Assembly: GCA_005878385.1 (NCBI GenBank)
Contig: VBMN01000078.1
Coordinates: 1-42,651, forward strand
DNA from: Methanobacteriota archaeon
GTDB lineage: Archaea > Thermoplasmatota > Thermoplasmata > RBG-16-68-12
Direction: 5' to 3'
Length of the DNA: 42,651 bases
Shown: piece after piece, positions 10,247-42,651 of the stretch
How the letters are laid out: each line of letters opens with the position of its first letter
How positions within the stretch are numbered: position 1 is the stretch's first letter
Made by a program: the position numbers and the translations under genes
The notes under the pieces: model-generated
The model's input: the letters and a program-made list of their open reading frames with translations, nothing else
Database searches by the model: none
Told to the model about the DNA's origin: nothing

Positions 10247-10266
10247 CGACCGCGTTCGGTCGGCCG

Positions 10267-11725: not shown

Positions 11726-11747
11726 GTCGGGGCCCATGGGAGAATCG

Positions 11748-13630: not shown

Positions 13631-13646
13631 ACAACTATTCGTGGGG

Positions 13647-13720: not shown

Positions 13721-13885
13721 ATTGCGCCACCATCGTCCCACGGGGCGGCCAGGCGGAATTTCCCGCGCTAACCGGATGAGCTGCGGTGGTGCAACCGCGA
13801 GGAAAAGCTCCCACGCCATAAAGATTCCGAGACCCTTCCGTTCCGGGCCGCCACCGTTAAGGTTGATTCCGCCCTTCGCGCGGAT

Positions 13886-14995: not shown

Positions 14996-15057
14996 GGAGA
15001 TCGATTTCCTCCCGTGGGGACGGGCTTACGCGGTAGCGATGCGACTTCCACCCCATG

Positions 15058-15065
15058 CTTTATCA
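15058..15065 (+). promoter_or_regulatory. TATA box (CTTTATCA) for glyS
   Basis: Centred 29 nt upstream of ATG 15090. It lies inside the longer ORF-track model (15039). Confidence 0.5.
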
Positions 15066-15089
15066 CCGGCCCTCCCCTTCGGGGCCGCG

Positions 15090-16574
15090 ATGGCCTCGTA
15101 CGAGGACCTGATGTCCTTGTCCGTCCGTCGCGGCTTCCTCTGGCCCGCCGTCGATCTGTACGGCGGCTTCGCCGGTTTCTACGATTACGGGCACAATGGC
15201 GTCCTCCTTCGGAGGCGATGGGAAGACCGCTGGATCGAGACCTTCCTCGGGCTAAGCGATAATTACCATCTGATCGACACGACGACGATTCTTCCCGAAG
15301 CCGCCCTCAAGGCGTCCGGCCATGTGGATCACTTCACGGACATCCTCGTCACCTGCACGCGATGCGGGGAGTCGTACCGCGGCGACCAGCTTCTCGAGGC
15401 CGCGACCCACGAGGAGCAGGAAGGGCTGACCACGAAAGAGGTCGACGCTCGGATCGAGGATCTCAAGATCCGATGTCCGAACTGCAAGGGTGTTCTGGGC
15501 CCGTCCCGCGAGTTCCACATGATGTTCCCGCTCGGAGTCGGTCCCACGGGGAAGGACCGCGCTTACCTGCGACCCGAAACCGCCCAGGGCGTGTTCCTGA
15601 ACTTCAAACGGGAGTTCGAGGCTCTCCGCCGGAAACTGCCGATGGGGCTGGCCATCGTCGGACGCGCATACCGGAATGAAATCAGTCCCCGGCAAGGCGC
15701 GTACCGGATGCGGGAATTCATCCAAGCGGAACTGCAGATCTTCTTCGACCCCGCGACGTTCGCGGACGCACTGCCTTTCCACGAGATCGCGTCCGTCCCC
15801 GTTCGAGTTGCCTGGGCCTCGGAGAAACACGCGCCGACGGCGCACGACATTCCCGCGAAGGATCTGATCGACCACGGACTGCCGCCGTGGTATGTCTGGC
15901 ACCTCGTGCAGGTCCAGCGCTTCTATCTCGACTTCCTGCGGCTCCCGAGGGACGCCTTCCGCTTCGCCGAACTGGACGAGAAGGAACGCGCGTTCTACAA
16001 CAAGATCCACTTCGACATCCAGGTTCGACAGGAGAGCTTGGGAGGATTCAAGGAAGTTGGCGGAGTCCACTACCGGACGGACCACGATCTGAAGGGGCAC
16101 GAGGCGGGGTCCCACGCGAAACAGTCCGTCACCTTCGGAACGTCGAAACTCGTTCCGCACGTCCTCGAACTGTCGTTCGGTGTGGATCGCAACGTATGGG
16201 CGCTCCTCGACCTCTCGTACACGAAAAGCGATCGCATCGTGCTCCGGCTTCCGCCCCGGATCGCGCCTGTTCCCGTCGGGGTCTTTCCGCTCGTGAACAA
16301 GGACGGCCTCCCGGAGCGAGCCGAAGCGCTGTACGCGGACCTCCGCAAGCGGACCACGGTGTTCTACGACGATTCGGGTTCGATCGGAAGACGATATGCG
16401 CGGATGGACGAAATCGGCACGCCCTTCTCCGTCACCGTCGATCACGAGACACTCGAGGGGAAGGGCGTCACCGTGCGCGAGCGAGACTCGCAGAAACAGG
16501 TCCGGGTCGAGGAACGGGAACTCGCAGGGAAGCTTGCCCGCTTCCTGTCCGGCGAAGAGACATTCTCTGCGTGA
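15090..16574 (+). CDS. glyS: Glycine--tRNA ligase (archaeal/eukaryal class II type)
   Basis: SVRRGFLWPAVDLYGGFAGFYDYGHNGVLL, RPETAQGVFLNFK, GRAYRNEISPR, and a C-terminal anticodon-binding region ending GIGTPFSVTVD. Confidence 0.9.
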   Translation: MASYEDLMSLSVRRGFLWPAVDLYGGFAGFYDYGHNGVLLRRRWEDRWIETFLGLSDNYHLIDTTTILPEAALKASGHVDHFTDILVTCTRCGESYRGDQLLEAATHEEQEGLTTKEVDARIEDLKIRCPNCKGVLGPSREFHMMFPLGVGPTGKDRAYLRPETAQGVFLNFKREFEALRRKLPMGLAIVGRAYRNEISPRQGAYRMREFIQAELQIFFDPATFADALPFHEIASVPVRVAWASEKHAPTAHDIPAKDLIDHGLPPWYVWHLVQVQRFYLDFLRLPRDAFRFAELDEKERAFYNKIHFDIQVRQESLGGFKEVGGVHYRTDHDLKGHEAGSHAKQSVTFGTSKLVPHVLELSFGVDRNVWALLDLSYTKSDRIVLRLPPRIAPVPVGVFPLVNKDGLPERAEALYADLRKRTTVFYDDSGSIGRRYARMDEIGTPFSVTVDHETLEGKGVTVRERDSQKQVRVEERELAGKLARFLSGEETFSA

Positions 16575-16578
16575 GACG

Positions 16579-17193
16579 ATGGGGACGCCTCGCGGCGTGC
16601 TCCGATTCGTGGAGCAACTCGAACATCGAATCGACGATCTTGTCTCGGGACGGGATCACGTCGCGCTCGCTTATTCCGGGGGCTTGTCGAGCACGCTCCT
16701 CGCGATGGTCGCTCGCAAGAGATGCGATCTGGAGTGCGTCGTCGCAGGAGTCGAGAGCTCCGAAGACGTCCGCGCAGGGAAGGCCGCGAAGGCCCATTTG
16801 GACTATCGGGTTCGATTCGTGTACCTCGACCTCGAGGAGGTGCTCCGAATCCGTGAAGACATCGAGACTTCGAACCGACGCTTGTCTCCAATCTCGGTCC
16901 GTTCATTGATTCCCTTGCGCGCGGTGCTCAAGGAAACGCCCGACCACGCGGTCCTGACAGGATTCGGGCTTCAGCGGATGGACGCGAACATCGAGACGGT
17001 TCTCCGGGGCCGGGGATTCCTGTGTCCTCTGATGGACCTGTCGCGGAATCGACCGTTCCCTCGGGCCTTACTTCGCGAGGCGGCGATTTCTCTCGGCCTT
17101 CCGGTCGAATGGGCCCGCGTGGCACACCGATCCCCCGCGACGGGTGCGGGAATCAATGACTTCCTCCTGACAAGGGGACCCCGTGATCGCTAG
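16579..17193 (+). CDS. PP-loop-like ATP pyrophosphatase family protein (function unclear)
   Basis: VALAYSGGLSSTLLAMV resembles the SGGxDS PP-loop. ATG is 4 nt after the glyS stop. The ORF-track start at 16396 lies inside glyS. Confidence 0.55.
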   Translation: MGTPRGVLRFVEQLEHRIDDLVSGRDHVALAYSGGLSSTLLAMVARKRCDLECVVAGVESSEDVRAGKAAKAHLDYRVRFVYLDLEEVLRIREDIETSNRRLSPISVRSLIPLRAVLKETPDHAVLTGFGLQRMDANIETVLRGRGFLCPLMDLSRNRPFPRALLREAAISLGLPVEWARVAHRSPATGAGINDFLLTRGPRDR

Positions 17194-17290
17194 GACGCTC
17201 CTCGCGGGGCCAACCCGAACGGTGCATTCGGCGATCTTTTCCTCGAGCGGAACCCCTGTATTCGCAAGGATGACATTGAGCCAGCAAGCG

Positions 17291-17296
17291 TTATAA
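17291..17296 (+). promoter_or_regulatory. TATA box (TTATAA) for the small GTPase gene
   Basis: About 30 nt upstream of ATG 17326. The ORF-track GTG at 17299 is only 3 nt from the box and therefore implausible. Confidence 0.5.
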
Positions 17297-17325
17297 GCGT
17301 GACCCCTGCATGGAGCGACATCGCG

Positions 17326-18144
17326 ATGGTCGACGACCACATCAAACGCAAGATTCTCCTCCTCGGCGACGGGGCGGTCGGGAAGACGAGCCTGATCCGA
17401 CGCTTCGTGGTGGACAAGTTCTCGGACGAGTACATCACCACGATCGGGACGAAGGTCACGAAAAAGGACCTGCGGATCGAGTCGCCGGGAAAATTCACGG
17501 ACCTGACCTTCATGATTTGGGACGTCCTCGGACAGAAGGGCTACAAGGGGATTCAAGAGAGTTCGTTTCAAGGGGCTAAGGGAGCCCTTCTGATGTACGA
17601 CGTCACGCGACCGGAGACGGCGGAGAGTCTTCAGGACTACTGGATTCCGCACCTGCTCCAGGTGACGAACCCGATTCCGATCGTCGTCGTCGGCAACAAG
17701 GTGGACCTCGCGAATTCCCGACGGGAAGCGCAGGAGGCGCTGGACGATCTCAAGGAGAGCCTCGGCGTGGCCGGATTCCTGAGTTCCGCGAAGACCGGAC
17801 AGAACGTGGAGGCGGGCTTCCTCGCCCTTGCGAAGGCCATGATTTCTCATTCGGATGCGAGGATGTCCCGACGCGAGGCCGTCGAGGAAGTGACGCACGA
17901 GTTCATCGCCGTGACGGACCAGATCATCATGGACTTCTGCGACTCGATGGGCGGTCAAGAGGCCGCGATGCCCATCGTGCGACAACAACTCACCCGCGCG
18001 GGCGTCGATGTGAAAGCGCCGACCCGGGAGGGCCTGCGTCTCGCGGTCGACTATCTGGCGGAAACCGAGTCTTCGTTCCGGAACGCGGCCGACGTCGAGG
18101 AGAGCAAGCGCAAACGTCTCGGTTGGATCAAGGAAGTTGCCTGA
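17326..18144 (+). CDS. Rab/Ras-like small GTPase with an about 100-aa C-terminal helical extension
   Basis: G1 LLGDGAVGKTSL, G2 YITTIGT, G3 WDVLGQ, G4 GNKVDL, G5 SAKTGQNVEAGF. No CAAX motif. Confidence 0.85.
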   Translation: MVDDHIKRKILLLGDGAVGKTSLIRRFVVDKFSDEYITTIGTKVTKKDLRIESPGKFTDLTFMIWDVLGQKGYKGIQESSFQGAKGALLMYDVTRPETAESLQDYWIPHLLQVTNPIPIVVVGNKVDLANSRREAQEALDDLKESLGVAGFLSSAKTGQNVEAGFLALAKAMISHSDARMSRREAVEEVTHEFIAVTDQIIMDFCDSMGGQEAAMPIVRQQLTRAGVDVKAPTREGLRLAVDYLAETESSFRNAADVEESKRKRLGWIKEVA

Positions 18145-19554
18145 TCAGAGCGGCCGTTCCATGTACGGTCGATCGAGCCGGTAACCGAGGGAACGGTAGT
18201 ACCCTCGGACGCCGACCCCGGACATGACCCGCATCCTTGGCACATGGAATTCATCTCGGGCGATCCGTTCACATTCCGACATCAATCTGCGTCCGAATCC
18301 GCGGTGCTGCCAGCGCTCGCCCGCCGACTCGTGGATCGGGACGATACGACCAAAGACTTTCAGTTCCCGGACCGTCGCTTCCTTCATTCCAATCCTCAAG
18401 CGTGCGTACGCGACAAGAACATCACGCTCGGGATCCTCGATGCTCAGGAACACCTCGAGGCCGCCGGATGCGTCGTAGTCGTTGCGCAGCAGGGTCAGCG
18501 CCTCAAGGCGAGGCGGGACCGCTCGGAAGCCGACCTCGCGACACCGAACGCAATGGCAGTCGAGGCCCTGCGACCGGAGACGCTCCTTCGCGAGCACACG
18601 CAAGTCTCCTCGCTTCGCGCCCTCTTCGATGTCCGGTGCCCCGATCTCCCGTTGGACCCGCTGGATCCGGCACCATCGCGGGACGATGGCCTTGACGCGG
18701 GCGATCAGCTCGACGGCCTCGTCCGTGCGGAGCGGCGTGTAACGGCCGGATTTCCAAAGCCCATGCAGGGCGGTGCCTGACAGCACGAGCGTCGGATAGA
18801 TCTTCAGGAAGTCAGGGCGATAGGAGGGATCCTCGAAAAGGCCGCGGAACGATTCCATGTCTCGATCCGGATCCGATCCCGGGAGGCCCGGCATCATGTG
18901 GACCCCGACCTTCAACCCGGCAGACTTCGCCACGCGGATTGCCTCCCGACTTTGCGCGTCGGTGTGGCCCCGGTGGACGGCCTCCAACACGTCATCGTGG
19001 GTCGTCTGAACCCCCAGTTCCACGCGCGTCGCACCCAGGGCCAAGGATTCTGCGACCTCAGGGCCCAGGAAGCAATCCGGTTTCGTCTCAATCGTAAGCC
19101 CGATGCATCGACTCGCGGCGGATTCGTTCGCGTCCTGCGCGTCTTCGAGGGCCGGAGCTTCGAATCCGTTCAGGCCGTCGAAGCATCCTTTCACGAACCA
19201 CTCCCGATAGCCCGCCTCGAGGGCGGTGAAGGTGCCGCCGAGGACAATCAGGTCCACCTTGTCCGTGTCGTGTCCGATCCGCTGCAAAGCCTCGATCCGG
19301 GAGACCGTCTGTCCTCTGGGATCGTAATGATGCTCCGCGGCCCGCTGGGCGACCGGCTCGGTCCCCATGTAGGACTGCGGTGTTCCGAGACGCGGTCCAC
19401 CGGGGCAGTACGTGCAGACACCGTGCGGACAACCGTGAGGGGCGGTCATCACGGTGACGACCGCGACCCCGCTCGCCGTCCGAGCGGGCTTGACCCGAAG
19501 GAGATCCCGGAGGTCCTCCCGCAGCGGGTCGGGCATGCGCTCGAGGATCGCCAA
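18145..19554 (-). CDS. elp3: Elp3 (radical SAM + GNAT tRNA wobble-uridine modification enzyme)
   Basis: Radical SAM cluster CPHGVCTYCPGG, GNAT end HRGFGRRLMSECERIA. The conserved N-terminal segment continues in frame to 19701 without a canonical start. Confidence 0.9.
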   Translation of the reverse strand: MAILERMPDPLREDLRDLLRVKPARTASGVAVVTVMTAPHGCPHGVCTYCPGGPRLGTPQSYMGTEPVAQRAAEHHYDPRGQTVSRIEALQRIGHDTDKVDLIVLGGTFTALEAGYREWFVKGCFDGLNGFEAPALEDAQDANESAASRCIGLTIETKPDCFLGPEVAESLALGATRVELGVQTTHDDVLEAVHRGHTDAQSREAIRVAKSAGLKVGVHMMPGLPGSDPDRDMESFRGLFEDPSYRPDFLKIYPTLVLSGTALHGLWKSGRYTPLRTDEAVELIARVKAIVPRWCRIQRVQREIGAPDIEEGAKRGDLRVLAKERLRSQGLDCHCVRCREVGFRAVPPRLEALTLLRNDYDASGGLEVFLSIEDPERDVLVAYARLRIGMKEATVRELKVFGRIVPIHESAGERWQHRGFGRRLMSECERIARDEFHVPRMRVMSGVGVRGYYRSLGYRLDRPYMERPL

Positions 19555-31566: not shown

Positions 31567-32460
31567 GTGAAAACGCTCGAGTGGATCCGGGCCTCGCAGG
31601 CCCTGTTGTTCGAGGCATCCGTCATACCGGTGATCGTCGGAACGGCCGCAGCGATCCATGCGGGGGCCCGCTTCGATGCCGCGTGGTTCGCCCTGATTGT
31701 CATTTCGCTCGTAGGAATCCAAGCGGGAGCGAACTTGTTCAAGGGATACTATGAAGGCCGCGATCGGTCCGTTCCTCCTGCCTCACCGGGCTCCTGGTTC
31801 GCGTTCGATAGCACCGCGGCGACGAACCTGACGTCCGACCCAGAGGACGTTCTCCGACTCGGGAGGATTTGCTTCGGACTTGGAGCCGCAGCAGGCCTCT
31901 TGCTTGTCGCCCTATCGAGGAATCCCCTCCTTCTCGGGTTCGGCCTCGCGGGCGCATTGTTGGCATGGAGTTACAGCTCTCCTCCCCTCCAACTCAGTTA
32001 CCGAGGCATCGGCGAGCTCTCGACGTTTTTCGCATTCGGACCGGTCATGACGGTCGGGGCCACCGTCGCGTTTGGAGGCGCAGGACTTCGCGAGAGCGCG
32101 TTCGCCTCCGTTGTCCTCGGGTTTCTCGCGGCCGCCATTTCCTTTGCGCGGTACTTCCCCAATCGAGAGGAGGACGTATCTAAAGGAAAAGCGACGCCCG
32201 TCACAATCCTCGGTTTCGCGAAGGGGAGACGGGCCTTCTTGGGTTTGCTAATTGCACCGCTGCCGTTCGGGATCGTGTGGTACCTTTTCGGAGGCGGGGT
32301 TTTGTGGATCATGGCTGTCCTTGGGTCCTTCCTCGCCGTCGTTCTTCTGTTTCCGAAGGAACAAGTGGGCGCGCGGTTCGAACGCGTGGTCGCCGGAGCG
32401 ATCGCCGCACATATCATTGTCGGGTTCGCGTTAATCGTCGATCTCGCGGTCGGGCTATAG
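31567..32460 (+). CDS. UbiA-superfamily prenyltransferase, MenA-like, first Asp-rich motif degenerate
   Basis: 9 TM-like segments. LSYRGIGELSTFFAFG and NREEDVSKGKATPV align by eye to the MenA motifs YGYIGLGD and NNxRDxxxDxxxGKxTL. The expected NDxxDxxxGxD is replaced by NLFKGYYEGRD. Confidence 0.75.
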   Translation: MKTLEWIRASQALLFEASVIPVIVGTAAAIHAGARFDAAWFALIVISLVGIQAGANLFKGYYEGRDRSVPPASPGSWFAFDSTAATNLTSDPEDVLRLGRICFGLGAAAGLLLVALSRNPLLLGFGLAGALLAWSYSSPPLQLSYRGIGELSTFFAFGPVMTVGATVAFGGAGLRESAFASVVLGFLAAAISFARYFPNREEDVSKGKATPVTILGFAKGRRAFLGLLIAPLPFGIVWYLFGGGVLWIMAVLGSFLAVVLLFPKEQVGARFERVVAGAIAAHIIVGFALIVDLAVGL

Positions 32461-33168
32461 GTTCGCGACCGCGGCGATCAGATAGGCAAGCGTCATTCCC
32501 GCGCCGAGCAAGAGGACTGCCTGAATCGTCCCCGCATTCGCGGGGATGTGCGCCGGATATTCGCGATAGTGGGCGCGAAGGACCGCTCGGGCGCGGGAGA
32601 GAGGGATGAACGCGATGAGCCCGATCAAGGCGACCCAGGAGACGAACCGGAACACCGCGAGGACGGCGAGCAGGACAAGGGCGGACCCCCCGACGCCGTG
32701 ATATTGGAGGGCGACGGGAGGGAGCGTGTAGAAGATGCCGATCGCTCCACCGATCCCGCCGAGCACGAGCAGGATCCAGCCGTTCGGGCGGGTCAGGAAG
32801 AGGAAGAGCCCGATCAGGCCTCCCGCAACATAAAGGCCGATCCACACCCGGCGATGGGTCTCGAACGGGACCGCGCGATCCGGGAGGACTCGTGCCCCGC
32901 CGGTGAAGGGGCTCACGAGATGCGGAGGCAGATCATCGACTCCGCGTCGAAAGTCAATCGAATCGTTGCTCATGTTCGTGGCCGCATGGAGGCAGACGAC
33001 TCCGATCGCGGTGAGAAGGAGACCAATCGCATCGAAGTTCCGTGACTCGTGCCACGCGATCGCGGTCCCGAGCGCCACACCGACGAGCGAGGCGACGAAG
33101 CTGTGGGGCTGCGTCGCCTTGATCCAGCTCCGCAGCGAGGACATCCTATTCCCAGACCGTCTGGCCAC
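32455..33168 (-). CDS. UbiA-superfamily paralogue (short, second Asp-rich motif not visible)
   Basis: WIKATQPHSF and NMSNDSIDFRRGVDD (first Asp-rich motif intact). 229-237 aa. ATG 33144 lies 1 nt after the cupin stop and is an alternative start. Confidence 0.65.
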   Translation of the reverse strand: MARRSGNRMSSLRSWIKATQPHSFVASLVGVALGTAIAWHESRNFDAIGLLLTAIGVVCLHAATNMSNDSIDFRRGVDDLPPHLVSPFTGGARVLPDRAVPFETHRRVWIGLYVAGGLIGLFLFLTRPNGWILLVLGGIGGAIGIFYTLPPVALQYHGVGGSALVLLAVLAVFRFVSWVALIGLIAFIPLSRARAVLRAHYREYPAHIPANAGTIQAVLLLGAGMTLAYLIAAVANL

Positions 33169-33962: not shown

Positions 33963-34332
33963 CCGAGCCAAAGCATCCGTCGACCTGGGCCCCGTCTTTG
34001 CCGCCTTGGCACACCCGATTCGGCGGGCCATCGTCGAACAGCTGGCCGGTGGTGACGCCACGGTCGGCGAACTCGCGGAGCCCCACAAGGTGAGCCTTCC
34101 CGCCATCTCGAAGCACCTCCGTGTGCTCGAAGACGCGGGCTTGCTGCAGGTCGAACCTGAGGGCCGCGTGCACCGCTGCCAGCTTGACGCCGCGCCGCTC
34201 AGTGCGGCGTTCGGTTGGCTCACGCGCTATCGCGTCCTGTGGGAGGATCGCTTTGACCGGTTGGCCAGGCACTTAGAGGAAACCCGCAAAACAGAAACCA
34301 GGGAGGAAACAACACATGCCCGCAAAAAGTAA
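33955..34332 (+). CDS. ArsR/SmtB-family transcriptional regulator
   Basis: FAALAHPIRRAIVEQLAGGDATVGELAEPHKVSLPAISKHLRVLEDAGLL. Confidence 0.85.
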   Translation: MVNRAKASVDLGPVFAALAHPIRRAIVEQLAGGDATVGELAEPHKVSLPAISKHLRVLEDAGLLQVEPEGRVHRCQLDAAPLSAAFGWLTRYRVLWEDRFDRLARHLEETRKTETREETTHARKK

Positions 34333-34963
34333 GACTGCTAGAACGTCAGACCGAGAGATCGTGACGACGTACGTCTTCGATGCTCCTCGCGATCTCGTTT
34401 GGAGAACATGGATGGATCCGAAACTGATCCCTCGATGGTGGGGTCCGAGGAAGTACACGACGACCGTTGAGAAAATGGACGTACGACCCGGAGGTACCTG
34501 GCGGTTCCTCCAGCGTGACGACGAGGGGAACGAGTACGGCTTCCATGGCGAGTACCGGGAGGTCGTCCCGCCTGAGCGGATCGTCGACACCTTCGAGTTC
34601 GAGGGAATGCCGGGGCACATTCTGGTCGAGAGCGCCGTGTTCGAAGAGGTCGGCCAGAAGACCAAGGTCACCCAGAAGGCCCTCTTTGCGACCGTCGAGG
34701 ACCTCGAAGGAATGGTCGCATCGGGGATGGAGGAAGGGGCCCGCGAAACAATGGAACGCTTCACGGAACTCGTGCAGGAGATGAAGAAGGACGCGCGGGG
34801 CTCGCGGGCGGAAGCTTCCGGTATTGCATGCGATCGCCGGAAGGGAAGGATTACTGGGGCATCGGCGTCTACCGCGAGATCGTCCCCGGGAAGCGAATCG
34901 TCTACACGGACAGCTTCGCCGATGAGAAGGGCAACGTGGTGCCCGCGACGTACTACGGAATGA
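34316..34963 (+). CDS. SRPBCC/AHSA1-domain protein with an aberrant about 55-aa out-of-frame C-terminal tail
   Basis: FDAPRDLVWRTWMDPKLIPRWWGP..RPGGTWRFLQRDDEGNEYGFHGEYREVVPPERIV. GGAGG at 34302-34306. After ..ELVQEMKKD the frame reads through a second AHSA1 remnant in the wrong frame. Confidence 0.75.
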   Translation: MPAKSKTARTSDREIVTTYVFDAPRDLVWRTWMDPKLIPRWWGPRKYTTTVEKMDVRPGGTWRFLQRDDEGNEYGFHGEYREVVPPERIVDTFEFEGMPGHILVESAVFEEVGQKTKVTQKALFATVEDLEGMVASGMEEGARETMERFTELVQEMKKDARGSRAEASGIACDRRKGRITGASASTARSSPGSESSTRTASPMRRATWCPRRTTE

Positions 34964-35133
34964 GCGCGGACATGCCGCTCGAGATGCTCGTCACCGCGAC
35001 TTTCGAAGAGGAAGACAGCAAGACGAAGGTCGGCTTACATCACGCGGGGCTTCCAGCGGGACCAGATCGTGACGGAGCGACGCAGGGCTGGAATGAAATG
35101 TTCGACAAGCTGGTCGAGTTCCTCGAGGGGTGA
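34828..35133 (+). pseudogene. 5'-truncated second AHSA1-domain paralogue
   Basis: GGSFRYC-MRSPEGKDYWGIGVYREIVPGKRIVYT aligns with RPGGTWRFLQRDDEGNEYGFHGEYREVVPPERIV of the upstream gene. The first about 45 residues of the domain are absent in all frames. Confidence 0.5.
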
Positions 35134-35185: not shown

Positions 35186-35884
35186 TCAGTAGATTCGGGT
35201 GTTGTCGTCGGGGGGGTCCTGCGAGACTTCCGGAGGGTCCGGGGACGGATCCGGGGCCGGATCGAGGGGCAAATCCGAGCCCGGATTGGGTGATGGATCC
35301 GGATTGGGACCGGGGGCGGGAGGGGCGCGGCGCCATGCCCAAACGCTCAACATCAGAGAGGCCGCCATGAGTGCCAAACCACCGACAAGCACGATCACCG
35401 CGAGAATGGAGTCGCCAGTTTTCAGGCCTACCACGATTAGGTCGACGTGGACTCGGAGTTCTTGCCGCGTGGGAGAGTCGACAGCCACAACGTGATATTG
35501 TCCCGAGCCCCCAAGATTCAGATCGAACACGATGCTCGTTCCACTCTGCTCGAACAGGGGAGACACGGCATTGGAGCCGTCGCGGAACGACGCGTATCCG
35601 GAATCATCGAAGACGAAGAGGTCGAAGGATCGACCCTGACTTTCGGAGAGATTTCCGCTCAACCGCCCCGTCCCCAAGATGCCAAATTCGAACTGGTAAT
35701 AGGTCCCGGAGGGGACAAAGACATTTTGGGATGTCCGGACCGGCTGTGCGGCCGCAAGGAGCATGAACGATCCGACGATAATTTGCACGACCGCGATTGC
35801 GACGAGGATGTTGATGCGTTTCAACGAGTCGCCTCCGGGTCGTCTTCTCGTCTCGTCATCGAAGATTGGTCGCGCCCGCGGCAC
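35186..35884 (-). CDS. Two-TM membrane protein with a beta-rich ectodomain and a Pro/Asp-rich cytoplasmic tail
   Basis: TM1 INILVAIAVVQIIVGSFMLLAAA, TM2 ILAVIVLVGGLALMAASLMLSVWAW, tail PAPGPNPDPSPNPGSDLPLDPAPDPSPDPP. It is the last gene on the same strand after the kinase gene. Confidence 0.6.
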   Translation of the reverse strand: MPRARPIFDDETRRRPGGDSLKRINILVAIAVVQIIVGSFMLLAAAQPVRTSQNVFVPSGTYYQFEFGILGTGRLSGNLSESQGRSFDLFVFDDSGYASFRDGSNAVSPLFEQSGTSIVFDLNLGGSGQYHVVAVDSPTRQELRVHVDLIVVGLKTGDSILAVIVLVGGLALMAASLMLSVWAWRRAPPAPGPNPDPSPNPGSDLPLDPAPDPSPDPPEVSQDPPDDNTRIY

Positions 35885-35992
35885 TCGCGGTGGCCGTTTC
35901 GTTGGACCGATGAGACCGCCGGACTCCGCTCATGGGGGAGGTACGCCCATTGCCCTCGAACCGGGGAAACGAACCCTCTTCCCTTTCTTTGG

Positions 35993-37765
35993 TCAAACAT
36001 TTCGCTTCCCCTCCGGAGACTGCTCGGGAGCGCGCGCAATGATGACCGAGATATTGTCCGTCCCGCCGCCTTTGTTCGCGAGTGCGACCAGAATGTCGCA
36101 GGCGGTCTGGGGATCGCTCGTTTCGACCACGACCCGTTGAATCTCATCATCTTCCACATGGTTGATGAGGCCGTCGCAACACAACAAAATGCTGTCGCTA
36201 CGCTCCATCGTGAGGCATCCGATATCCGGAGTCACCTCGTCGTAGACCCCGAGGGCCATCGTGATCACGTTCTTCCTGGGATGGTGCCTGGCGTCGTCCG
36301 GGGAAAGCTCCCCCCGGTCGACCATCTCCTGAACAAGGGAGTGGTCCCGCGTCACCTGGTAAATCTCCCGCGCGTTGACGATGTACGCCCGGGAGTCACC
36401 GGCGTTCGCGACATGAAGGGTGCGACCATCGGCAATTGCAAGGCTCAAGGTCGTCCCCATCCCTTCGCATTCCGGATGCAGTTGGGCTTCCTCGATGATG
36501 GCTTGATTGGCGATGCCGATGGCCGCTCGGAGTTCGTTGTGGTAGATGGCGCGCGCGATGTCGGTCTCGCTTGTCAGCAGTGGCAGGAGCGTGCGGGCCA
36601 CCGCCTGCACCGCGATCCGGCTCGCCACGGCGAGGACGTCGCCATCCGTGAGGGGTTGCCGTTTGAACTTGGGCAGCCGTTGATAGGTCCTCCCGCCGTC
36701 GTGCGACATCGCCGTGCCGTTCAAGCTTCCCAGGTCCTCGACCCAACACCGGCCCTTCGGGTCCTTCAGGATCCGCGCATGATGCTTGGAGAGGAACCGC
36801 TCCGTATCCAGGATGCCGATGTCTGGAGGCCGTCCGAACCCTCTCTTCGTGCAACCCTGGTCGCAGGCCTTGTGCTCCCTGCCGATCTCCATCTCCTTTT
36901 TCACCTTGCACTTCTGTCCGAGCACTACCAGGTGGGGAAAGCCGAGGGACTCCGGGGCACCGCCTCCGATCGCCTCGGCCATGTCCTTGGCCGTCGTAAA
37001 CCGCTGCTTCGGATCGAACGCCATCGCTCGCGTCACCACGTCGGAAAGCGACCGCGGGACGCTCGGCACGAGATCGCGGGGGGATCGGTACAGCTCCGTC
37101 CTCCCTTGCGCGAGTTGCTTCATGGAGCCTTGAGGGTCCTGGGTTGTCAGGAGAAAGAAGAGGACCGCGCCCACGCTGTACAGGTCGCTCGCCGGCGTCG
37201 CCTCTCCGAGGTTCTGCTCCGGTGCCCCCCAGCCCGGGGTGTAGATGACAGTGCCGGATCCTCGGAACTGATGGAATTCCTTCTTCGCCGCCCCGAAATC
37301 GATCAGCACCACCTCTCGCCGGGCGTCGAGGATGATGTTCTTGGGCTTGACGTCCCGATGGATGACGTTCCGCCCGTGAAGGTAGGACAGGGCCTCGAGC
37401 AACTGCAGGACGTATCGAGTGGCCGTGGCCGCGTCGGCCGACTGATCTCGGAATCGTTCGGCCAGCGTATCGCCATCGAGTCGTTCCTCGACCAGACAAA
37501 AAGGCCCCAAGTTGTTGCCTTCGTCCACATACCGGACGACCCGCGGATGACCCGGAGAACCCAGGGCGCGCAGGATATCGGCCTCGATCCGAAGCCGTTC
37601 CTGGGCCTGTTCGAGATCGGGCCCGCTCGCCTCCTTGACGACGATCGCCTGTCCACGGCTGGACTTGCCCGCATAGACGGTCGACATCCCTCCCTCAGCC
37701 AACTTGCTGACGACCTCATAGCGACCTCTCCGACCTTTCAAGGTACACGGAAGGGAGAGGGTCAT
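35993..37765 (-). CDS. Ser/Thr protein kinase - FHA - PP2C-like triple-domain fusion
   Basis: Kinase motifs: LAEGGMSTVY, AIVVKEA, HRDVKPKNIIL, DFGAAK, TPGWGAPEQ. FHA motifs: EIGRE..LSKHHARI..EDLGSLNGT. PP2C-like motifs: GMGTT, VANAGDSRAY, TRDHS, LLCCDGL, GGTDNISVIIA. Confidence 0.9.
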   Translation of the reverse strand: MTLSLPCTLKGRRGRYEVVSKLAEGGMSTVYAGKSSRGQAIVVKEASGPDLEQAQERLRIEADILRALGSPGHPRVVRYVDEGNNLGPFCLVEERLDGDTLAERFRDQSADAATATRYVLQLLEALSYLHGRNVIHRDVKPKNIILDARREVVLIDFGAAKKEFHQFRGSGTVIYTPGWGAPEQNLGEATPASDLYSVGAVLFFLLTTQDPQGSMKQLAQGRTELYRSPRDLVPSVPRSLSDVVTRAMAFDPKQRFTTAKDMAEAIGGGAPESLGFPHLVVLGQKCKVKKEMEIGREHKACDQGCTKRGFGRPPDIGILDTERFLSKHHARILKDPKGRCWVEDLGSLNGTAMSHDGGRTYQRLPKFKRQPLTDGDVLAVASRIAVQAVARTLLPLLTSETDIARAIYHNELRAAIGIANQAIIEEAQLHPECEGMGTTLSLAIADGRTLHVANAGDSRAYIVNAREIYQVTRDHSLVQEMVDRGELSPDDARHHPRKNVITMALGVYDEVTPDIGCLTMERSDSILLCCDGLINHVEDDEIQRVVVETSDPQTACDILVALANKGGGTDNISVIIARAPEQSPEGKRNV

Positions 37766-37778
37766 ACCGTCCGCGGAC

Positions 37779-38435
37779 CTATTTCACCACGAACTGGAGC
37801 GTCACCAACTCAGCGATGTCAATCTCATCGTCGTCTTGAAGTTCAGTACGACCCGTGCCGGTCACGAGGATTCGATCGCTGCCTCGGATGACCCAGGTCT
37901 TATTCGTGCTGGCTTTCCTTTGCACCATCGTCTTCCCGTCTTCGACGAAAAACCTCTCGCCTTCCTGAAAAACGGTGAGATGCCCGCGAGAAATCTCATT
38001 CGCCTTTTCCGGGTCGGGAAGAAATTTGGACACGTCCGCGCGGCCGATCAGCCACTGGGACGGTGGAATCGGCTGCTCCGTATCGTCGGGAAAGACTAAA
38101 TAGCCCGCTTTGGGCGTCTGGGCCGGAGGCTCCTCCTCGGTCTCGACCGATTCGGCGGGCGCCTCGCTCTCGGGCTCCGTCACATCGATTTCAGGCTCGG
38201 GTTCGGCCGTCGAATCGGAGGTGCCTTCCTCGCCAGTGAACATCGAATCGACCGCGCCTTCACCTTCGTCCGCGACTGACGCAAACGCAGGGTCCTGGTC
38301 CTCGGTGGGGGTCGGTGTAGACTGTTGTTCCGGTTCGGCGACCTGGAGATCCAGCCTCCCGCCGCACGCATCGCAGAATCGGGCGTCTTGCCGATTCTCG
38401 CTCCCGCAGTCCGGACAGCTTGCCATGGGCATCAC
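37779..38435 (-). CDS. Zinc-ribbon + acidic linker + FHA-domain protein (ArnA-like architecture)
   Basis: CPDCGSENRQDARFCDACGG, then an E/D/P-rich linker, then LIGRAD..ISRGHLTV..FFVEDGKT. The GTG start overlaps the vWA stop as GTGA. Confidence 0.8.
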   Translation of the reverse strand: MMPMASCPDCGSENRQDARFCDACGGRLDLQVAEPEQQSTPTPTEDQDPAFASVADEGEGAVDSMFTGEEGTSDSTAEPEPEIDVTEPESEAPAESVETEEEPPAQTPKAGYLVFPDDTEQPIPPSQWLIGRADVSKFLPDPEKANEISRGHLTVFQEGERFFVEDGKTMVQRKASTNKTWVIRGSDRILVTGTGRTELQDDDEIDIAELVTLQFVVK

Positions 38436-39727
38436 TTCCTCGGTTTCTTCTTTCCGATGATCGTGGTCGCCTGGAGGAAATCCTTCTTGGCCGACTCGCT
38501 CAGCTGGAGCCCGCTCCTTGCGACGGTCGCCTGGGCGTCTCGCATCGTCGTCACGATCTCGCTCAGGGCGGGGTTCGCTCGGACGGCGGCCGCGGCGCCG
38601 GCATCCGACGCGAGGGTCCGCATGATCGTCTCTGCTTTCTGCATCGCTGTCGCCTCCCTCGTCTGGACGGCCCTCTGCATGAGGACGGTAGCCTCGGCCG
38701 AGCTCAACAGCGTGCGCGGATACGGATTCGTCTCCACGCCCGACAACCGGGGGTCGTCCGTGAAGTTCAGTTCGACGTCCGACACGACTTCGACCAGGGA
38801 GAATCGAATCAAGGTGGCCTTCCCCGCCGGCCTGGCCGGGACCCCCATGCGGAACACGAGGGTCTGCTGCTCGCCCGCGATCAGGTCCCTGAGCGGGACC
38901 GTGAAGGAGCCTCCCTCGAGCCGAGGTCGGGGCAGTCGGTTCAGGACCGGCCGCACACTGTAGGCATCGGCCAGCTCCGAACCGGGCATGATCGAGACTT
39001 TCAATTCAGGGTTCGCGACCAAGGTTCCCGCCATCTGCGCCGCCTGCTCCTGGAAAATCTGGGGGAGATCGCCCTTCCCGGCATCGATGTGGTGCCACAA
39101 CCCTCCGGCGGACTCGGCAATTTTCTGAAGCAACATTTCGTTGTAATCGGTTCCAATCCCGATCGCGGTGATCGTGATGCCGGCCTCGCGCATGTTCTGG
39201 GCGAGGGTCACGAACTCTCGGCCGTCGGTCTTGCCGACCGTGGGATTGCCGTCAGTCAGGAGGATGACCCGGTTCACCATACCGGGTTCCTGAGAGGTCG
39301 TGCGCGCCTGTTTGAAGGCAGCCTCCAATCCGTTGTACATCGAGGTGAGGCCGTTCACGGAGATGGCCTTCACCGCCGCCGCGATCTCTCGTGAATTGCC
39401 GACTCGAGACATGGGTAGTTGGACCGTCACCGTATCGGAGAATGAAACGATTGAGATCTGGTCGGTCGGACGGAGCTGCTTGAGCAGGCCGAGCGCCGCC
39501 GCCTTGGCCTGGTCGATTTTCTCGCCGTCCATGGACCCGCTCGAATCGATGGCGAGGGAGATGCTTCGGTTCCTTCCGGCGATGGCGGCGGCAGACGGGG
39601 TCAGGTCCACGGCCACGTACACGGATGTGCCCGAATTCGGCTTCAGGTGTGCGCGATTGACCGTGCACAGCATCGCGAACGGCGATCGCTTCGTTGGACG
39701 ATTCTGGGTTTCCAGGGCTGGTTTCAT
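38432..39727 (-). CDS. von Willebrand factor A (vWA) domain protein (ArnB-like architecture)
   Basis: MIDAS motif LAIDSSGSMDG, then ..SFSD..GLTSMYNGL..ILLTDGNPT, plus an about 200-aa C-terminal extension. Confidence 0.85.
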   Translation of the reverse strand: MKPALETQNRPTKRSPFAMLCTVNRAHLKPNSGTSVYVAVDLTPSAAAIAGRNRSISLAIDSSGSMDGEKIDQAKAAALGLLKQLRPTDQISIVSFSDTVTVQLPMSRVGNSREIAAAVKAISVNGLTSMYNGLEAAFKQARTTSQEPGMVNRVILLTDGNPTVGKTDGREFVTLAQNMREAGITITAIGIGTDYNEMLLQKIAESAGGLWHHIDAGKGDLPQIFQEQAAQMAGTLVANPELKVSIMPGSELADAYSVRPVLNRLPRPRLEGGSFTVPLRDLIAGEQQTLVFRMGVPARPAGKATLIRFSLVEVVSDVELNFTDDPRLSGVETNPYPRTLLSSAEATVLMQRAVQTREATAMQKAETIMRTLASDAGAAAAVRANPALSEIVTTMRDAQATVARSGLQLSESAKKDFLQATTIIGKKKPRK

Positions 39728-39993
39728 TTTCCCACCTGAGAGCCGGGCGATGGCGGCGAGGCTTTCTTATCTCTTGCGTCGTCGTTCTCACGGATTGATT
39801 CTCACGCCAGGAGGCCTGAGGGCCGAAGGAAACCCCTCACGACTACGCGTGCCCTCTCGACCTCGTATCGAAATCGTTTGTGACACGCGTTTGCGCGTTT
39901 GGTCGTCTTGTTGCAGGCCTGTCATGTGTTCCGCGTGGAGCAACCTCACGAACCTGGACCTGCCTCCACGTTGGAGGGATCGGTGCGGACGAC

Positions 39994-40140
39994 GAGTTGA
40001 GCTCCCGTCAGCGGGAAATCTCGAGTCTCGTGTGGAATCTCGGTTACTTCGATATTCCGGCGCGGATCGGCCTCGAGAACCTTGCGGAACTGACCAGCCT
40101 CAGCCAGAACACGGTGAGTCCGCACTCTCGCCGGGATGTG
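39994..40140 (+). pseudogene. Isolated HTH_10 (Bat-type) helix-turn-helix remnant
   Basis: ELSSRQREISSLVWNLGYFDIPARIGLENLAELTSLSQNTVSPHSRR matches the pattern LTxRQRExLxxAxxxGYFDxPRxxxxxELAxxLGISxxTxxxHLRR. The flanking ORF sequence is Arg-rich junk and runs into the PKD gene. Confidence 0.3.
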
Positions 40141-40298
40141 CCGGATCCTGCGGGCGTCCCTCGCGCAACGAAACCGGTCAATGGGACTGAGACGCATCCC
40201 CCGGGAGCCGACATGGCCTCGAATAGGCCCGCAAGCATCAGAACGACACGAGCAGGATGGCGGCGCTCCAGAGGAGGATTACAGCCTGGTTGTCTGTC

Positions 40299-42651
40299 CT
40301 ACATCAGCGTGACGACGACGGTCACATCCGCGGAATGCGTGATGGAGCCAATCGTCGCCGTCACGGTAACCGTGTAGGTGCCCGGCGTCGTCAAGACGGA
40401 GGTCGAAACGGTCAGGGTGGACGTAGCGGTTCCGCCGGAGGGCAGCGTTACACTACTTGGGCTGAGGGAGACCGTCGGCCAGACCAAAACGAGGCCGGAC
40501 GAAGAGATCGAAGCGCTGAGGCTCGCCGTCCCGGAGAGCCCATTGAGGCTCGTTAGGGTGATTCCGGAGGAACCGGACGACCCGCAGACGATGGTGAGCG
40601 AGGCTGGTGAGGCACTGATGCTGAAGTCTCCCGGTGGGGGCGGGGCCGTGACGATAATCGTGTGGGACTGAATTGCAGTGAGCCCACCCGAGTCGATCGC
40701 CTGCACGACGACCGTGTAAGTCCCGGCCGAACTGAATGTGTGGCTCACGGTCTTCGTCGTCGACCACGTGGTGTCCCACGTCCCGTCCCCGGTCCAGTCC
40801 CACCGGACTTGGATCGTGTTCGGCGGATCGTGGTCATCGCTTGCCGTAGCGGTGAACGTGAAGACGGTGCTTGTATCACCGGAAGTCGGCGTCCAGGTGA
40901 AATCCACCGTTGGGGGGCCGTTCGGCGGGGGTGGAGGTGAAGTGACCGAGACCATGTGGGATGCACTCGCGGTCAGGCCACCGGAGTCTTTCGCCTGCAC
41001 GACGACCGTGTAAGTCCCGGCCGAACTGAATGTGTGGCTCACGGTCTTCGTCGTCGACCACGTGGTGTCCCACGTCCCGTCCCCGGTCCAGTCCCACCGG
41101 ACTTGGATCGTGTTCGGCGGATCGTGGTCATCGGTTACTTGAGCCGTGAATGTGAAAACGGTGTTCGTGTCTCCCGAGGTGGGTGTCCACGTGAAGTCCA
41201 CGGACGGCGGCGCGTTCGGCGGGGGCGGAGGTGAGCTGACCGGGATCACATGTGAGGCGCTCGCGGTCAGGCCACCGGAGTCTTTCGCCTGCACGACGAC
41301 CGTGTAATTCCCGGGCGAACTGAACGTGTGGCTCGCGGTTTTTGTTGTGGACCATGACGTGTCCCACGTCCCGTCCCCGGTCCAGTCCCAGCGGACCTGG
41401 ATTGCATTCGGCGGATCATGGTCATCGCTTGCCGTAGCGGTGAACGTGAAAACGGTGCTTGTATCACCGGAGCTCGGAGTCCACGTGAAGTCCACGGACG
41501 GGGGCGCGTTCGGCGGGGGCGGAGGTGAGGTCACTTGGACAATGTGGGATGCGCTCGCGGTAAGCCCGCCCGAGTCGACGGCCTGCACGAAGACAGTCTT
41601 ATTCCCCGCGGAGCTAAAAGTATGGGTCGCGGTTTTTGTTGTGGACCATGACGTGTCCCACGTCCCGTCCCCGGTCCAGTCCCACCGGACTTGGATCGTG
41701 TTCGGCGGGTCGTGGTCATCGCTTGCCGTAGCGGTGAACGTGAAGACAGTGCCCGTGTCGCCCGAAGTCGGGCTCCAACTGAAGTCCACCGACGGCGGGT
41801 TATTCGGCGGCGGAGGGGGAGGGGGTGCCGTGACCTGGACCTGGTGGGAACGGTTCGAAGTGAGGCCACCCGAGTCGATCGCTTGCACGACGACAGTCTT
41901 GTTCCCCGCGGAGCTATACGTGTGGCTCGCGGTTTTTGTCGTGGACCATCCCGTGTCCCACGTCCCGTCCCCCGTCCAGTCCCAACGGACGGGAACCGAG
42001 TCGGGAGAATCGTGGTCGTCACTCACCTGAGCCGTGAAGGAGAACACCGTGCTTGTATTGCCTGAGGTTGGGCTCCAAGAGAAATCCACGGAAGGGGGCG
42101 AATTCGGGGGTGGCGGAGGCGGGGAGTTCGAAAGTTTCCATGCGGTCAGAGGATGGAGTTCCCAGTGATACGGCCCCTCCCAGAAGACGAACCCCTGCAT
42201 GTCGAGGGAAATGCTGCCGTTCGACTGTTCCTGGCCGAGCGTCTCATTGTTGCACGAGGGCACGTTCGGTCCGCAGTAGCCTCGGCCCAACCAATCGCGA
42301 TCGATCTCGATTTTCATGTACCCGCTCGTCGTCCCGAGCGTGATGATCTGTCCCGCGTCCGTGCAGAAGGTCTGGTTGCCTGGATAGCGGTGTCCCCCGT
42401 TCTGCTTGGAATACCATCCCGAGCAATCCGTGGTCTTGACGCCGTAACCGTACAAGGAGACTCCGTTGATTTGGACGAACGGAGAGAGGACCGCGCCGGT
42501 GATGTTCGTGATCGTACAAGGGGGCGAGAGGGACCGCTCGAGCGGGATCCCACCCGAGGTCGCGTTGTGCTGATACCGGCTGCCGCTGAGGGACTGGTGC
42601 GGATAGGCCGACCCTAAGACGTCCTTAATCGTGACCAAATCGGCCGCACAG
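40299..42651 (-). CDS. Secreted multi-PKD-domain protein (5' end outside the window)
   Basis: Five about 98-aa repeats of the form PPSVDF(T/S)W(T/S)PTSGDTSTVFTFTA..DDHDPPN..VRWDWTGDGTWDT..AGTYTVVVQAKDSGGLT, separated by poly-Pro. There is an N-terminal globular Cys-rich domain and a C-terminal Ig-like domain. The frame stays open to the window edge and no signal peptide is visible. Confidence 0.85.
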   Translation of the reverse strand, partial: CAADLVTIKDVLGSAYPHQSLSGSRYQHNATSGGIPLERSLSPPCTITNITGAVLSPFVQINGVSLYGYGVKTTDCSGWYSKQNGGHRYPGNQTFCTDAGQIITLGTTSGYMKIEIDRDWLGRGYCGPNVPSCNNETLGQEQSNGSISLDMQGFVFWEGPYHWELHPLTAWKLSNSPPPPPPNSPPSVDFSWSPTSGNTSTVFSFTAQVSDDHDSPDSVPVRWDWTGDGTWDTGWSTTKTASHTYSSAGNKTVVVQAIDSGGLTSNRSHQVQVTAPPPPPPPNNPPSVDFSWSPTSGDTGTVFTFTATASDDHDPPNTIQVRWDWTGDGTWDTSWSTTKTATHTFSSAGNKTVFVQAVDSGGLTASASHIVQVTSPPPPPNAPPSVDFTWTPSSGDTSTVFTFTATASDDHDPPNAIQVRWDWTGDGTWDTSWSTTKTASHTFSSPGNYTVVVQAKDSGGLTASASHVIPVSSPPPPPNAPPSVDFTWTPTSGDTNTVFTFTAQVTDDHDPPNTIQVRWDWTGDGTWDTTWSTTKTVSHTFSSAGTYTVVVQAKDSGGLTASASHMVSVTSPPPPPNGPPTVDFTWTPTSGDTSTVFTFTATASDDHDPPNTIQVRWDWTGDGTWDTTWSTTKTVSHTFSSAGTYTVVVQAIDSGGLTAIQSHTIIVTAPPPPGDFSISASPASLTIVCGSSGSSGITLTSLNGLSGTASLSASISSSGLVLVWPTVSLSPSSVTLPSGGTATSTLTVSTSVLTTPGTYTVTVTATIGSITHSADVTVVVTLM
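40645..42128. repeat. Tandem coding repeats, about 294-300 bp period x5 (PKD modules)
   Basis: The anchor motif GTGTCCCACGTCCCGTCCCC recurs at 40771, 41065, 41359, 41653 and 41953. Region 40697-40839 reads identically to 40991-41133. Confidence 0.9.

Follow-up and report, generated by a model that had tools for sequence, protein, structure and literature searches.

The 590-aa open reading frame that appears to unite a Hanks kinase, an FHA domain and a PP2C phosphatase in this contig is not a native gene. In its place, soil Thermoplasmata-like archaea carry a conserved module of five genes, predicted to code for a vWA protein, a Zn-ribbon-FHA protein, a 403-aa kinase-FHA protein, a PP2C of about 286 aa and a protein with two transmembrane (TM) segments. 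The 304-nt gap that merged the third gene with the fourth is most likely due to an error of assembly or scaffolding. In the window, i.e. the whole stretch of 42,651 nt that was analysed, the cluster is read on the minus strand as four frames: the vWA protein (38432..39727, 431 aa), the Zn-ribbon-FHA protein (37779..38435, 218 aa), the fused frame (35993..37765, 590 aa) and the membrane protein (35186..35884 when started at a GTG at 35884). The ORF table and Pfam bear out the preliminary description on these four frames and on their domains, as well as on the GTGA overlap of the vWA and FHA genes (38432-38435) and the 13-nt gap separating FHA from kinase. Started from an ATG one codon further on, the FHA frame gives a product of 217 aa, the form called in relatives, with an overlap reduced to 1 nt (TGATG).

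Compared with the related loci L005 and L001, the fused frame divides at position 36629. Its 5' part (36629..37765, minus strand, aa 1-379) is the native kinase-FHA protein minus its last 25 codons, while its 3' part (35993..36628, minus strand, aa 380-590) is the native PP2C from residue 76 onwards. At the junction, the minus strand reads ...GACGTCCTCGCC directly followed by GTGGCGAGCCGG..., and 304 nt are missing, within which, in the other copies, the kinase-FHA gene of 403 aa ends and a second gene, for a 286-aa PP2C, begins. Removal of the last 25 codons of the former and of the first 75 codons of the latter happened to bring the two frames together by chance. The contig of a sibling metagenome-assembled genome (MAG), L005, matches the window at 99.9-100% identity but is longer by 304 nt precisely at 36629. 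The same insert is present in five JGI metagenome contigs with both flanks 99-100% identical, four of them without a single mismatch to the insert of L005; there, the kinase gene terminates in ...GGRRQGGR* and the head of the PP2C displays GRVRPVDED and DGMGGH. Logan contigs from seven soil runs (X1/X2, X3, X4, X5, X12, X20 and X22) likewise depart from the window at 36629 to enter the missing sequence, which one 409-nt contig spans. None of the Logan contigs from these soil runs, a resource that drops rare variants, spans the junction of the window. No indexed run contains this junction as a 60-mer, the best run sharing 0.82 of the words of the window, and as a 26-mer it has 0 matches in 241 million JGI records, against 5 for the undeleted junction.

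Comparison of the proteins leads to the same picture. Close homologues of the fused frame fall into more than 45 clusters (66-92% identity) of Pkinase+FHA proteins of about 403 aa, which end at query residue ~381-385. In ten related loci (L001-L008, L011 and L012), a separate PP2C gene of 282-286 aa directly follows the kinase gene. The identical 590-aa protein is found on 1 contig, against 12 for the identical vWA protein and 7 for the identical membrane protein of 212 aa. Because homologues, JGI contigs, Logan contigs and L005 all point to two genes, the fusion is not native. The preliminary description had presented it as an unusual all-in-one protein, while allowing for an artefact created from separate genes; what was found are two separate genes in every other copy and a 304-nt gap private to the window contig, which takes away the catalytic N-terminus of PP2C. 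As an observation of its own, homologues labelled 'src' show internal deletions and frameshifts, and one of them is a 557-aa kinase/PP2C read-through (P0041). That the source collection is prone to deletions, an idea suggested by the odd lengths of these homologues, was dropped, SRC being separate read-derived protein assemblies (SRR accessions) with no bearing on the window contig.

What the 590-aa frame would produce can be read from its motifs. The kinase (aa 16-260, nt 36986-37720, minus strand; Pfam Pkinase 2.4e-37) has all its catalytic motifs, read in translation as VVK, HRDVKPKN, DFG and APE. The FHA domain (aa ~310-379, nt 36629-36838, minus strand; Pfam FHA 2.3e-9) stops at the junction. 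The PP2C segment is partial (Pfam PP2C 9e-13; positions 41-182 of the 209 of the PP2C_2 profile). It retains GMGTT, NAGDSR, CCDGL and GGTDN and is devoid of motif I (GRVRPVDED) and motif II (VADGMGGH), which carry metal-binding aspartates. Its PDB matches include PppA 6JKV and PstP 1TXO; its alignment begins at residue 35 of 247 in Stp1 and at residue 44 of 237 in PstP. With the intact neighbour PP2C, the alignment to Stp1 begins at its first residues and takes in both motifs. Judged from its sequence, the product would combine an intact kinase with an FHA domain short of its last strand or strands and with a PP2C remnant lacking motifs I and II, and it would not include a working phosphatase.

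It is therefore hardly credible that writer, reader and eraser work together in this single protein, as had been supposed. To be sure, the frame remains open and in phase for 590 codons, and natural two-domain fusions of kinase and PP2C exist in both orders, a PP2C+kinase protein of Pseudomonas being a known example (PMC1262709). Our searches also retrieved natural kinase-PP2C fusions (P0436, P0460, P0064 and P0068). However, these proteins of 555-770 aa have a complete PP2C N-terminus (profile start 8-27), where the window frame lacks the two motifs together with the first beta-strands of the fold, and their origin is unrelated to the window junction. FHA was present in 0 of the 20 fusion candidates scanned with Pfam. 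A search for the Pkinase+FHA+PP2C architecture found none among the best 120 hits or the best 150 representatives, and no relative displays this arrangement, confined to a single contig.

A rather different possibility is that the 304-nt deletion is real, and that the assembler followed a minority soil strain with an allele that had lost its phosphatase and impaired its FHA domain. We hold this to be possible but unlikely, about three times less probable than an error of assembly or scaffolding. In its favour, a repeat that might explain collapse of the assembly graph at 36629 was sought and not found beyond a microhomology of 1 nt, and de Bruijn assemblers rarely create junctions without a shared k-mer. 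The sibling contig L005 has its own, different gap of 96 nt, in frame, in the same kinase-FHA gene, which could hint at real heterogeneity at the locus. The rest of the window contig is collinear with independent assemblies; as positions 1-18,720 are gap-free when compared with three independent contigs, the contig is not error-ridden in general. Against a real deletion, the junction is absent from all other data sets searched, and it does not stand by itself. Two further gaps private to the window lie within 4 kb, one of 237 nt in a UbiA gene (with a microhomology of ~7-8 nt) and one of 223 nt, creating a frameshift, in an AHSA1 gene; other assemblies contradict both of them. The window junctions of this pair lie at 32688-32695 and 34806/34807. 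That sequence 99.9% identical should, over 4 kb, have lost 223-304 nt three times, each time in a different and unrelated gene, would make an implausible mutation spectrum; as one of the three is a frameshift, nothing points to selection for function. It is this accumulation of window-only gaps, set against only ~20 SNPs in the same 12 kb, that leads us to favour an assembly error. The consequence reaches beyond the locus: the 590-aa protein is an NCBI nr entry derived from one MAG contig, and it is unfit to be counted as real in databases or in censuses of domain architectures.

With the fusion set aside, the likeness of the cluster to the ArnA/ArnB pair, which represses the archaellum in Sulfolobus acidocaldarius (PDB 8S05, 5A8I, 5A8J; PMC6509490, PMC12852372), holds. 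It is based on sequence matches, on the fit of AlphaFold2 (AF2) models in Foldseek, on a shared layout and on synteny. The vWA protein has the MIDAS motif DSSGS that had been noticed at the outset, in a vWA/MIDAS domain at aa 56-212 (nt 39092-39562, minus strand; Pfam VWA 7e-26), where D61, S63, S65, T128 and D159 do not vary across the family (n=36 sequences). AF2 and Foldseek place a beta-sandwich at aa 235-322 (nt 38762-39025, minus strand) and a helical bundle at the C-terminus, aa 336-422 (nt 38462-38722, minus strand). In the latter, the conserved T347, T393, T421 and T422 are candidate phosphosites. ArnB is its top PDB match in sequence (8S05_A, 3.9e-19, reaching 6e-33 with the family profile), with 5A8J also among the matches, and the family profile gives a full-length alignment with 4FX5. 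The AF2 model (pLDDT 90.9) fits 4FX5 (TM 0.72/0.73), ArnB 8S05 (TMt 0.71-0.76) and ArnE 5A8J across all three domains, superposing on ArnB and ArnE over ~430 columns, and Foldseek further returns Sec24.

The partner of the vWA protein is laid out as ArnA is, with a C4 zinc ribbon (aa 7-25, nt 38361-38417, minus strand; Pfam Zn_Ribbon_1 2.5e-6), an acidic and proline-rich linker (Pro/Glu/Gln) and a C-terminal FHA domain (aa 128-207, nt 37815-38054, minus strand; Pfam FHA 1.3e-5) displaying the phosphothreonine-binding residues GR, SRGH and STNKT. It aligns with ArnA (8S05_C and 5A8I) over nearly its full length, with 12 of the 19 residues of the ribbon identical. The matches are weak (phmmer E 0.015 for 8S05_C and 0.019 for 5A8I), and they are its sole PDB matches at E <= 0.1. 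Shared with ArnA are the ribbon CxxCGxENxxDAxFCxxCG and the SRxH of FHA. Pairing of the vWA and Zn-ribbon-FHA genes is conserved in the ten loci quoted above and in distant loci, and a kinase and a PP2C stand beside the pair in all relatives examined.

The fifth gene of the module most likely starts at TTG 35824, giving a membrane protein of 212 aa (35186..35824, minus strand). A distance of 108 nt from the fused frame had been reported; this is correct from GTG 35884, and becomes 168 nt from the likelier TTG. The earlier view of a 2-TM protein with a proline-rich tail is confirmed, the tail being rich in both proline and aspartate. AF2 and the alignment place TM1 at aa 2-25 and TM2 at aa 136-165. 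Between them, AF2 (pLDDT 78) and Foldseek suggest an outer GOLD/PPC-like beta-sandwich (aa 29-135, nt 35420-35740, minus strand), the matches being the GOLD domain of TMED1 (TMt 0.74) and also Tk-SP and PPC jelly rolls. The cytoplasmic tail is disordered and terminates in a near-invariant DDNTRIY. The protein has no Pfam match, and its 145 homologues all belong to one narrow clade.

The likeness to Sulfolobus has its limits. In both cases adjoining genes code for a protein made of a Zn-ribbon, a linker and FHA and for one made of vWA, beta-sandwich and helical bundle. However, identity is low (17-20% for vWA; E ~0.02 for ArnA), the vWA gene comes first here, and the cluster includes the kinase-FHA, PP2C and membrane proteins, whereas in Sulfolobus the kinases ArnC and ArnD and the phosphatase PP2A (of the PPP family, not a PP2C) are encoded elsewhere. 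Archaellum genes were found neither in the window nor in the loci examined with Pfam and gene tables, another difference from the ArnA/ArnB setting. To our knowledge, ArnA/ArnB-type pairs have been studied so far only in the Sulfolobales, where kinases and phosphatase are unlinked to them. In the soil Thermoplasmata-like organisms the pair is tied, within one cluster, to a Hanks kinase of its own, to a PP2C and to a small membrane protein, and this supplies candidate partners for the ArnA/ArnB pathway.

Bacteria also gather such functions. In Pseudomonas aeruginosa, threonine phosphorylation of type VI secretion uses PpkA (which carries a vWA domain), PppA and Fha1 as a reversible phosphothreonine switch; this vWA domain belongs to the kinase itself and lies in the periplasm. 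In mycobacteria, the FhaA-FhaB-PstP-PknA/B cluster assembles kinases, a PP2C and FHA readers into a switch of the same kind, and in both cases the genes lie together. The outputs of the PpkA and PknA/B clusters are secretion and the cell wall. In contrast to these bacterial clusters, only the present one has a three-domain vWA protein of the ArnB type with a Zn-ribbon-FHA partner. A recent preprint, as described in its abstract, places a vWA protein, a Ser/Thr kinase, an FHA protein and a PP2C in one operon of Deinococcus radiodurans, DRA0331-DRA0334, and proposes a push-pull logic of kinase and phosphatase (bioRxiv 10.64898/2026.01.23.701218). Compared by description, that bacterial system is similar in that a second docking domain of the FHA type is fused to an enzyme, and it differs in that this domain (KI-FHA) is carried by the PP2C there and by the kinase here; the abstract includes no Zn ribbon, and no GOLD-like membrane protein figures in the system as described.

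How the native module might work can be proposed wholly by analogy with ArnA and ArnB. The membrane protein would sense a signal or anchor the system. The targets of the kinase would be conserved threonines of the vWA protein, located in its helical C-terminal domain, and perhaps also the DDNTRIY tail of the membrane protein. The FHA domains would bind these phosphothreonines, so that a loose, ribbon-mediated complex of the vWA and Zn-FHA proteins would become a tight one, with a change in the downstream output, and PP2C would reset the system. A more specific and still doubtful reading makes the five genes a complete transmembrane phosphothreonine relay, in which the kinase would phosphorylate a conserved threonine at the cytoplasmic C-terminus of the GOLD-like protein (T209, in DDNTRIY) and the FHA domains would read this mark, tethering the ArnA/ArnB-like complex (with a core resembling Sec23/24) to the membrane, with PP2C as the reset. 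If true, this would be an arrangement not described in archaea.

One may also ask whether the module belongs to conflict with viruses rather than to housekeeping regulation, a reading that we find quite improbable. Conflict systems often include vWA proteins and kinases. Systems of this type that are centred on vWA and have kinases are on record, as are kinase-PP2C-vWA neighbourhoods (PMC7159879). Furthermore, the kinase domain scores against the PADLOC models PD-T4-6, mad6 and PglW, and the genomic context of the module differs between lineages. However, the PADLOC matches reflect generic kinase similarity; the vWA, Zn-FHA and membrane proteins match none of these models, and PP2C does so at 1e-4 only. 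The module is without MoxR ATPase, effector nuclease or other toxic domain, its kinase is catalytically intact by its motifs and accompanied by a phosphatase, the arrangement of regulatory modules, and its flanking genes are housekeeping genes. A divergently oriented frame with an HTH_10 DNA-binding domain (39880..40377, plus strand; Pfam HTH_10 5.6e-7) is found next to the module in the window and is present in the sibling contig L005; since it does not adjoin the module in L001-L004 and L011, it probably lies outside it.

The kinase-FHA-PP2C fusion of 590 aa, which the preliminary description had taken as a native all-in-one protein, is no real feature of the organism. The four minus-strand ORFs are located where that description placed them: a vWA protein of 431 aa (38432-39727), a Zn-ribbon-FHA protein of 218 aa (37779-38435), the 590-aa ORF (35993-37765) and a membrane protein ORF without Pfam match (35186-35884), with the vWA/FHA gene overlap and the intergenic gaps that it reported. 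Its domain content is confirmed by Pfam (VWA; Zn_Ribbon_1 and FHA; Pkinase, FHA and PP2C), the kinase has its full set of catalytic motifs, and the FHA domain that follows it has GR, SKHH and NG. The PP2C match of the 590-aa ORF is present but only partial. It covers positions 41-182 of the 209 of the PP2C_2 profile, and the alignments begin at residue 35 of 247 in S. aureus Stp1 and at residue 44 of 237 in M. tuberculosis PstP.

L005, a contig from a sibling MAG (NCBI 'Methanobacteriota archaeon') with 99.9-100% identity to the window, has 304 additional bases located exactly at window position 36629. Their translation gives the last 25 codons of a kinase-FHA gene, LVYKPGRGPYMTIAFKGGGRRQGGR*, making the final FHA strand(s), and then the first 75 codons of a PP2C gene, with motif I GRVRPVDED and motif II VADGMGGH. 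The intact L005 PP2C aligns with Stp1 from the first residues, both motifs included, and the window ORF joins PP2C immediately past them. As the native genes are in different reading frames and 304 is 3n+1, the gap brings them into one frame. Contigs assembled from soil sequencing runs (X1/X2, X3, X4, X5, X12, X20 and X22) match the window perfectly on both flanks of 36629, and every one of them departs from it at exactly that position, going on into L005 sequence; one, of 409 nt, holds both flanks with about 303 letters in between. No run contig spans the window junction, and a 60-mer over it is absent from all indexed runs. Among 241 million JGI metagenome records, a 26-mer over the junction has 0 exact matches, and the matching undeleted 26-mer is found on five contigs. 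The flanks of all five agree with the window at 99-100% identity, and each contig has the insert; in four of them it shows no mismatch to that of L005, and the kinase-FHA stop codon and a complete PP2C head are present. The exact 590-aa protein is found on a single contig, of 42,651 nt, the window itself; the exact vWA protein is found on 12, and the unchanged 212-aa membrane protein (most likely start, TTG 35824) on seven. Kinase-FHA and PP2C are thus two genes in all other copies, the 304-nt gap being private to the window.

Relatives tell the same story. In a search of 5.8 billion proteins, the 590-aa product has relatives at 66-92% identity in more than 45 clusters; these have Pkinase+FHA and a length of about 403 aa, and they cover no more than the first 65% of the query, whose PP2C part is matched by separate proteins; with HMMER, among 1.84 billion representatives, all kinase-FHA relatives stop at about query residue 380-385. 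Their loci display five genes rather than four, encoding vWA (431 aa), Zn-FHA (217-250 aa), kinase-FHA (397-403 aa), a separate PP2C (282-286 aa) that overlaps the kinase gene or lies a few bases downstream, and the membrane protein (198-216 aa). The linkage of vWA, FHA protein and kinase-FHA persists in distant loci where kinase identity is down to 33-37%; there, a second kinase-FHA comes next and a PP2C is nearby on the opposite strand.

The comparison with L005 discloses two further private gaps in the window. The UbiA-family ORF 32455-33168 (minus strand) lacks 237 nt, in frame, at 32688-32695, so that a UbiA prenyltransferase of 308 aa becomes shorter; microhomology at the junction is about 7-8 nt (CCCGACG), and the missing letters are present in L005 and in contigs from X1, X3 and X5. 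On the plus strand, an AHSA1/SRPBCC-family gene lacks 223 nt at 34806/34807, a frameshifting gap that breaks it into two overlapping ORFs, 34316-34963 and 34828-35133; an X1 contig has 226 letters between the sides, and contigs from X3, X4 and X5 enter the missing sequence. Both gaps are therefore contradicted by run contigs holding the missing letters. Within 4 kb, three unrelated genes each show a gap of 223-304 nt, which makes an implausible mutational spectrum; only about 20 substitutions separate the window from L005 in the surrounding 12 kb, and the reading frame is not consistently preserved. For these reasons we favour an assembly or scaffolding error at 36629. In the study of the sibling MAGs, 60 samples were each assembled separately with IDBA-UD (PMC6784897), and the 99.9% identity suggests that the window stems from the same study.

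It is rather unlikely, in our judgement, that the 304-nt loss is a rare but genuine deletion allele, even though microhomology at its junction is limited to 1 nt, three independent contigs match the window without gaps over its first 18.7 kb, and L005 has a 96-nt loss of its own in the same kinase-FHA gene, in a segment kept in the window and the JGI contigs. A real deletion would be a loss-of-function allele, not an integrated writer-reader-eraser. [quoted passage not shown]

Natural two-domain kinase-PP2C proteins occur in both domain orders (PMC1262709 and proteins scanned here). Their PP2C profile match begins at positions 8-27, hence the domain is complete, and in our non-exhaustive survey an FHA domain was found in 0 of 20 scanned fusions. 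Irregular database versions of proteins of the module, as we call the native five-gene cluster, include P0041, P0050, P0051, P0022 and P0001, besides many vWA homologues labelled 'src'. Those of the SRC read-derived protein catalogue show read-through, frameshifted tails or deletions inside the protein; in P0041 (557 aa), an out-of-frame stretch connects the kinase to a full PP2C, and P0001, a JGI protein, has a 60-aa tandem duplication. Such odd-length homologues are further spurious 'architectures' of module genes in public collections.

The proposed likeness of the vWA and Zn-ribbon-FHA pair to ArnB/ArnA, the archaellum-repression pair of Sulfolobus acidocaldarius, holds, if with weak sequence similarity on the ArnA side. 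The vWA protein is ArnB-like: its best PDB sequence match (3.9e-19; family profile 6e-33) is to 8S05 chain A, from the complex of ArnB with ArnA of S. acidocaldarius, and the family profile aligns over the full length with 4FX5, a Catenulispora vWA protein held to be a structural orthologue in the ArnAB papers (PMC12852372, PMC6509490). Its AF2 model (pLDDT 90.9), a vWA domain with a beta-sandwich and a helical bundle, superposes on 4FX5 (TM 0.72) and ArnB (TMt 0.71-0.76), and also on ArnE and Sec24; the MIDAS residues are invariant in the family. For the Zn-FHA protein, ArnA is the only PDB match at E <= 0.1, a weak one (E 0.015-0.019), with an end-to-end alignment and a common layout: 12 of the 19 ribbon residues (CxxCGxENxxDAxFCxxCG) are identical, the linker is rich in Pro, Glu and Gln, and the FHA domain has GR, SRxH and STN-T. 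The membrane protein family (145 matches, all inside this clade) has no Pfam annotation. Its AF2 model (pLDDT 78) has an outer beta-sandwich between TM1 and TM2, similar to GOLD domains (TMED1, TMt 0.74) and to jelly rolls of the PPC/collagen-binding type; TM2 is followed by a disordered tail of Pro and Asp with a near-invariant DDNTRIY at its end. Positively charged residues ahead of TM1 and following TM2 suggest that this tail is cytoplasmic.

As a whole, the module belongs with already known kinds of phospho-signalling cluster. It has two core proteins of the same kind as Sulfolobus ArnA/ArnB, where, however, the enzymes are encoded elsewhere and the phosphatase, PP2A, belongs to the PPP family. 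Bacterial FHA/PP2C/Hanks-kinase clusters are also among the closest characterised systems. The D. radiodurans DRA0331-0334 operon (vWA, STPK, FHA, KI-FHA+PP2C) has nearly the same parts list, but with an additional FHA on the phosphatase (bioRxiv 10.64898/2026.01.23.701218). In the published ArnA/ArnB model, the zinc ribbon holds a loose complex, which tightens when the C-terminal domain of ArnB, phosphorylated step by step, recruits the FHA domain of ArnA (PMC12852372, PMC6509490). By analogy, the module kinase would phosphorylate the vWA helical domain, where the conserved threonines T393, T421 and T422 are candidate sites, and possibly T209 in the DDNTRIY of the membrane protein; the FHA domains would act as readers of these phosphorylations and PP2C as their eraser. 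As already noted in the preliminary description, the window has no archaellum genes, nor have the related loci examined. PADLOC returned generic kinase matches only, leaving a defence role without specific support. An HTH_10 ORF (bacterio-opsin-activator-type DNA-binding; 39880-40377, plus strand), divergent from the vWA gene and overlapping the 3' end of the PKD gene, is present in L005; in other lineages it is not beside the module.

Elsewhere on the contig, a DnaA-type protein of 644-656 aa (6702-8672, minus strand; Bac_DnaA 1.7e-57 fused to DUF835) adjoins phosphoglycerate kinase; to our knowledge, a bacterial DnaA-type ATPase domain is unusual in an archaeon. A Ras/Roc/Arf-family small GTPase (17299-18144, plus strand; Pfam Ras 4.8e-36) is called in the independent contig L019 too, such eukaryote-like GTPases being, as far as we know, uncommon in archaea beyond a few lineages. 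A further signalling cluster is possible at 8-6688, where a KaiC-like ATPase (4357-5277) has three zinc-ribbon/DZR proteins around it, those of 3142-4287 and 5294-6688 and one of 967 aa with CARDB+DZR at 8-2911; gene 3142-4287 contains a 77-nt direct repeat (3221-3297 and 3344-3420). Finally, a surface protein of 779 aa (40299-42638, minus strand) displays five near-identical PKD repeats with Pro-rich linkers between them; L005 terminates within this array, which is therefore probably an assembly breakpoint.
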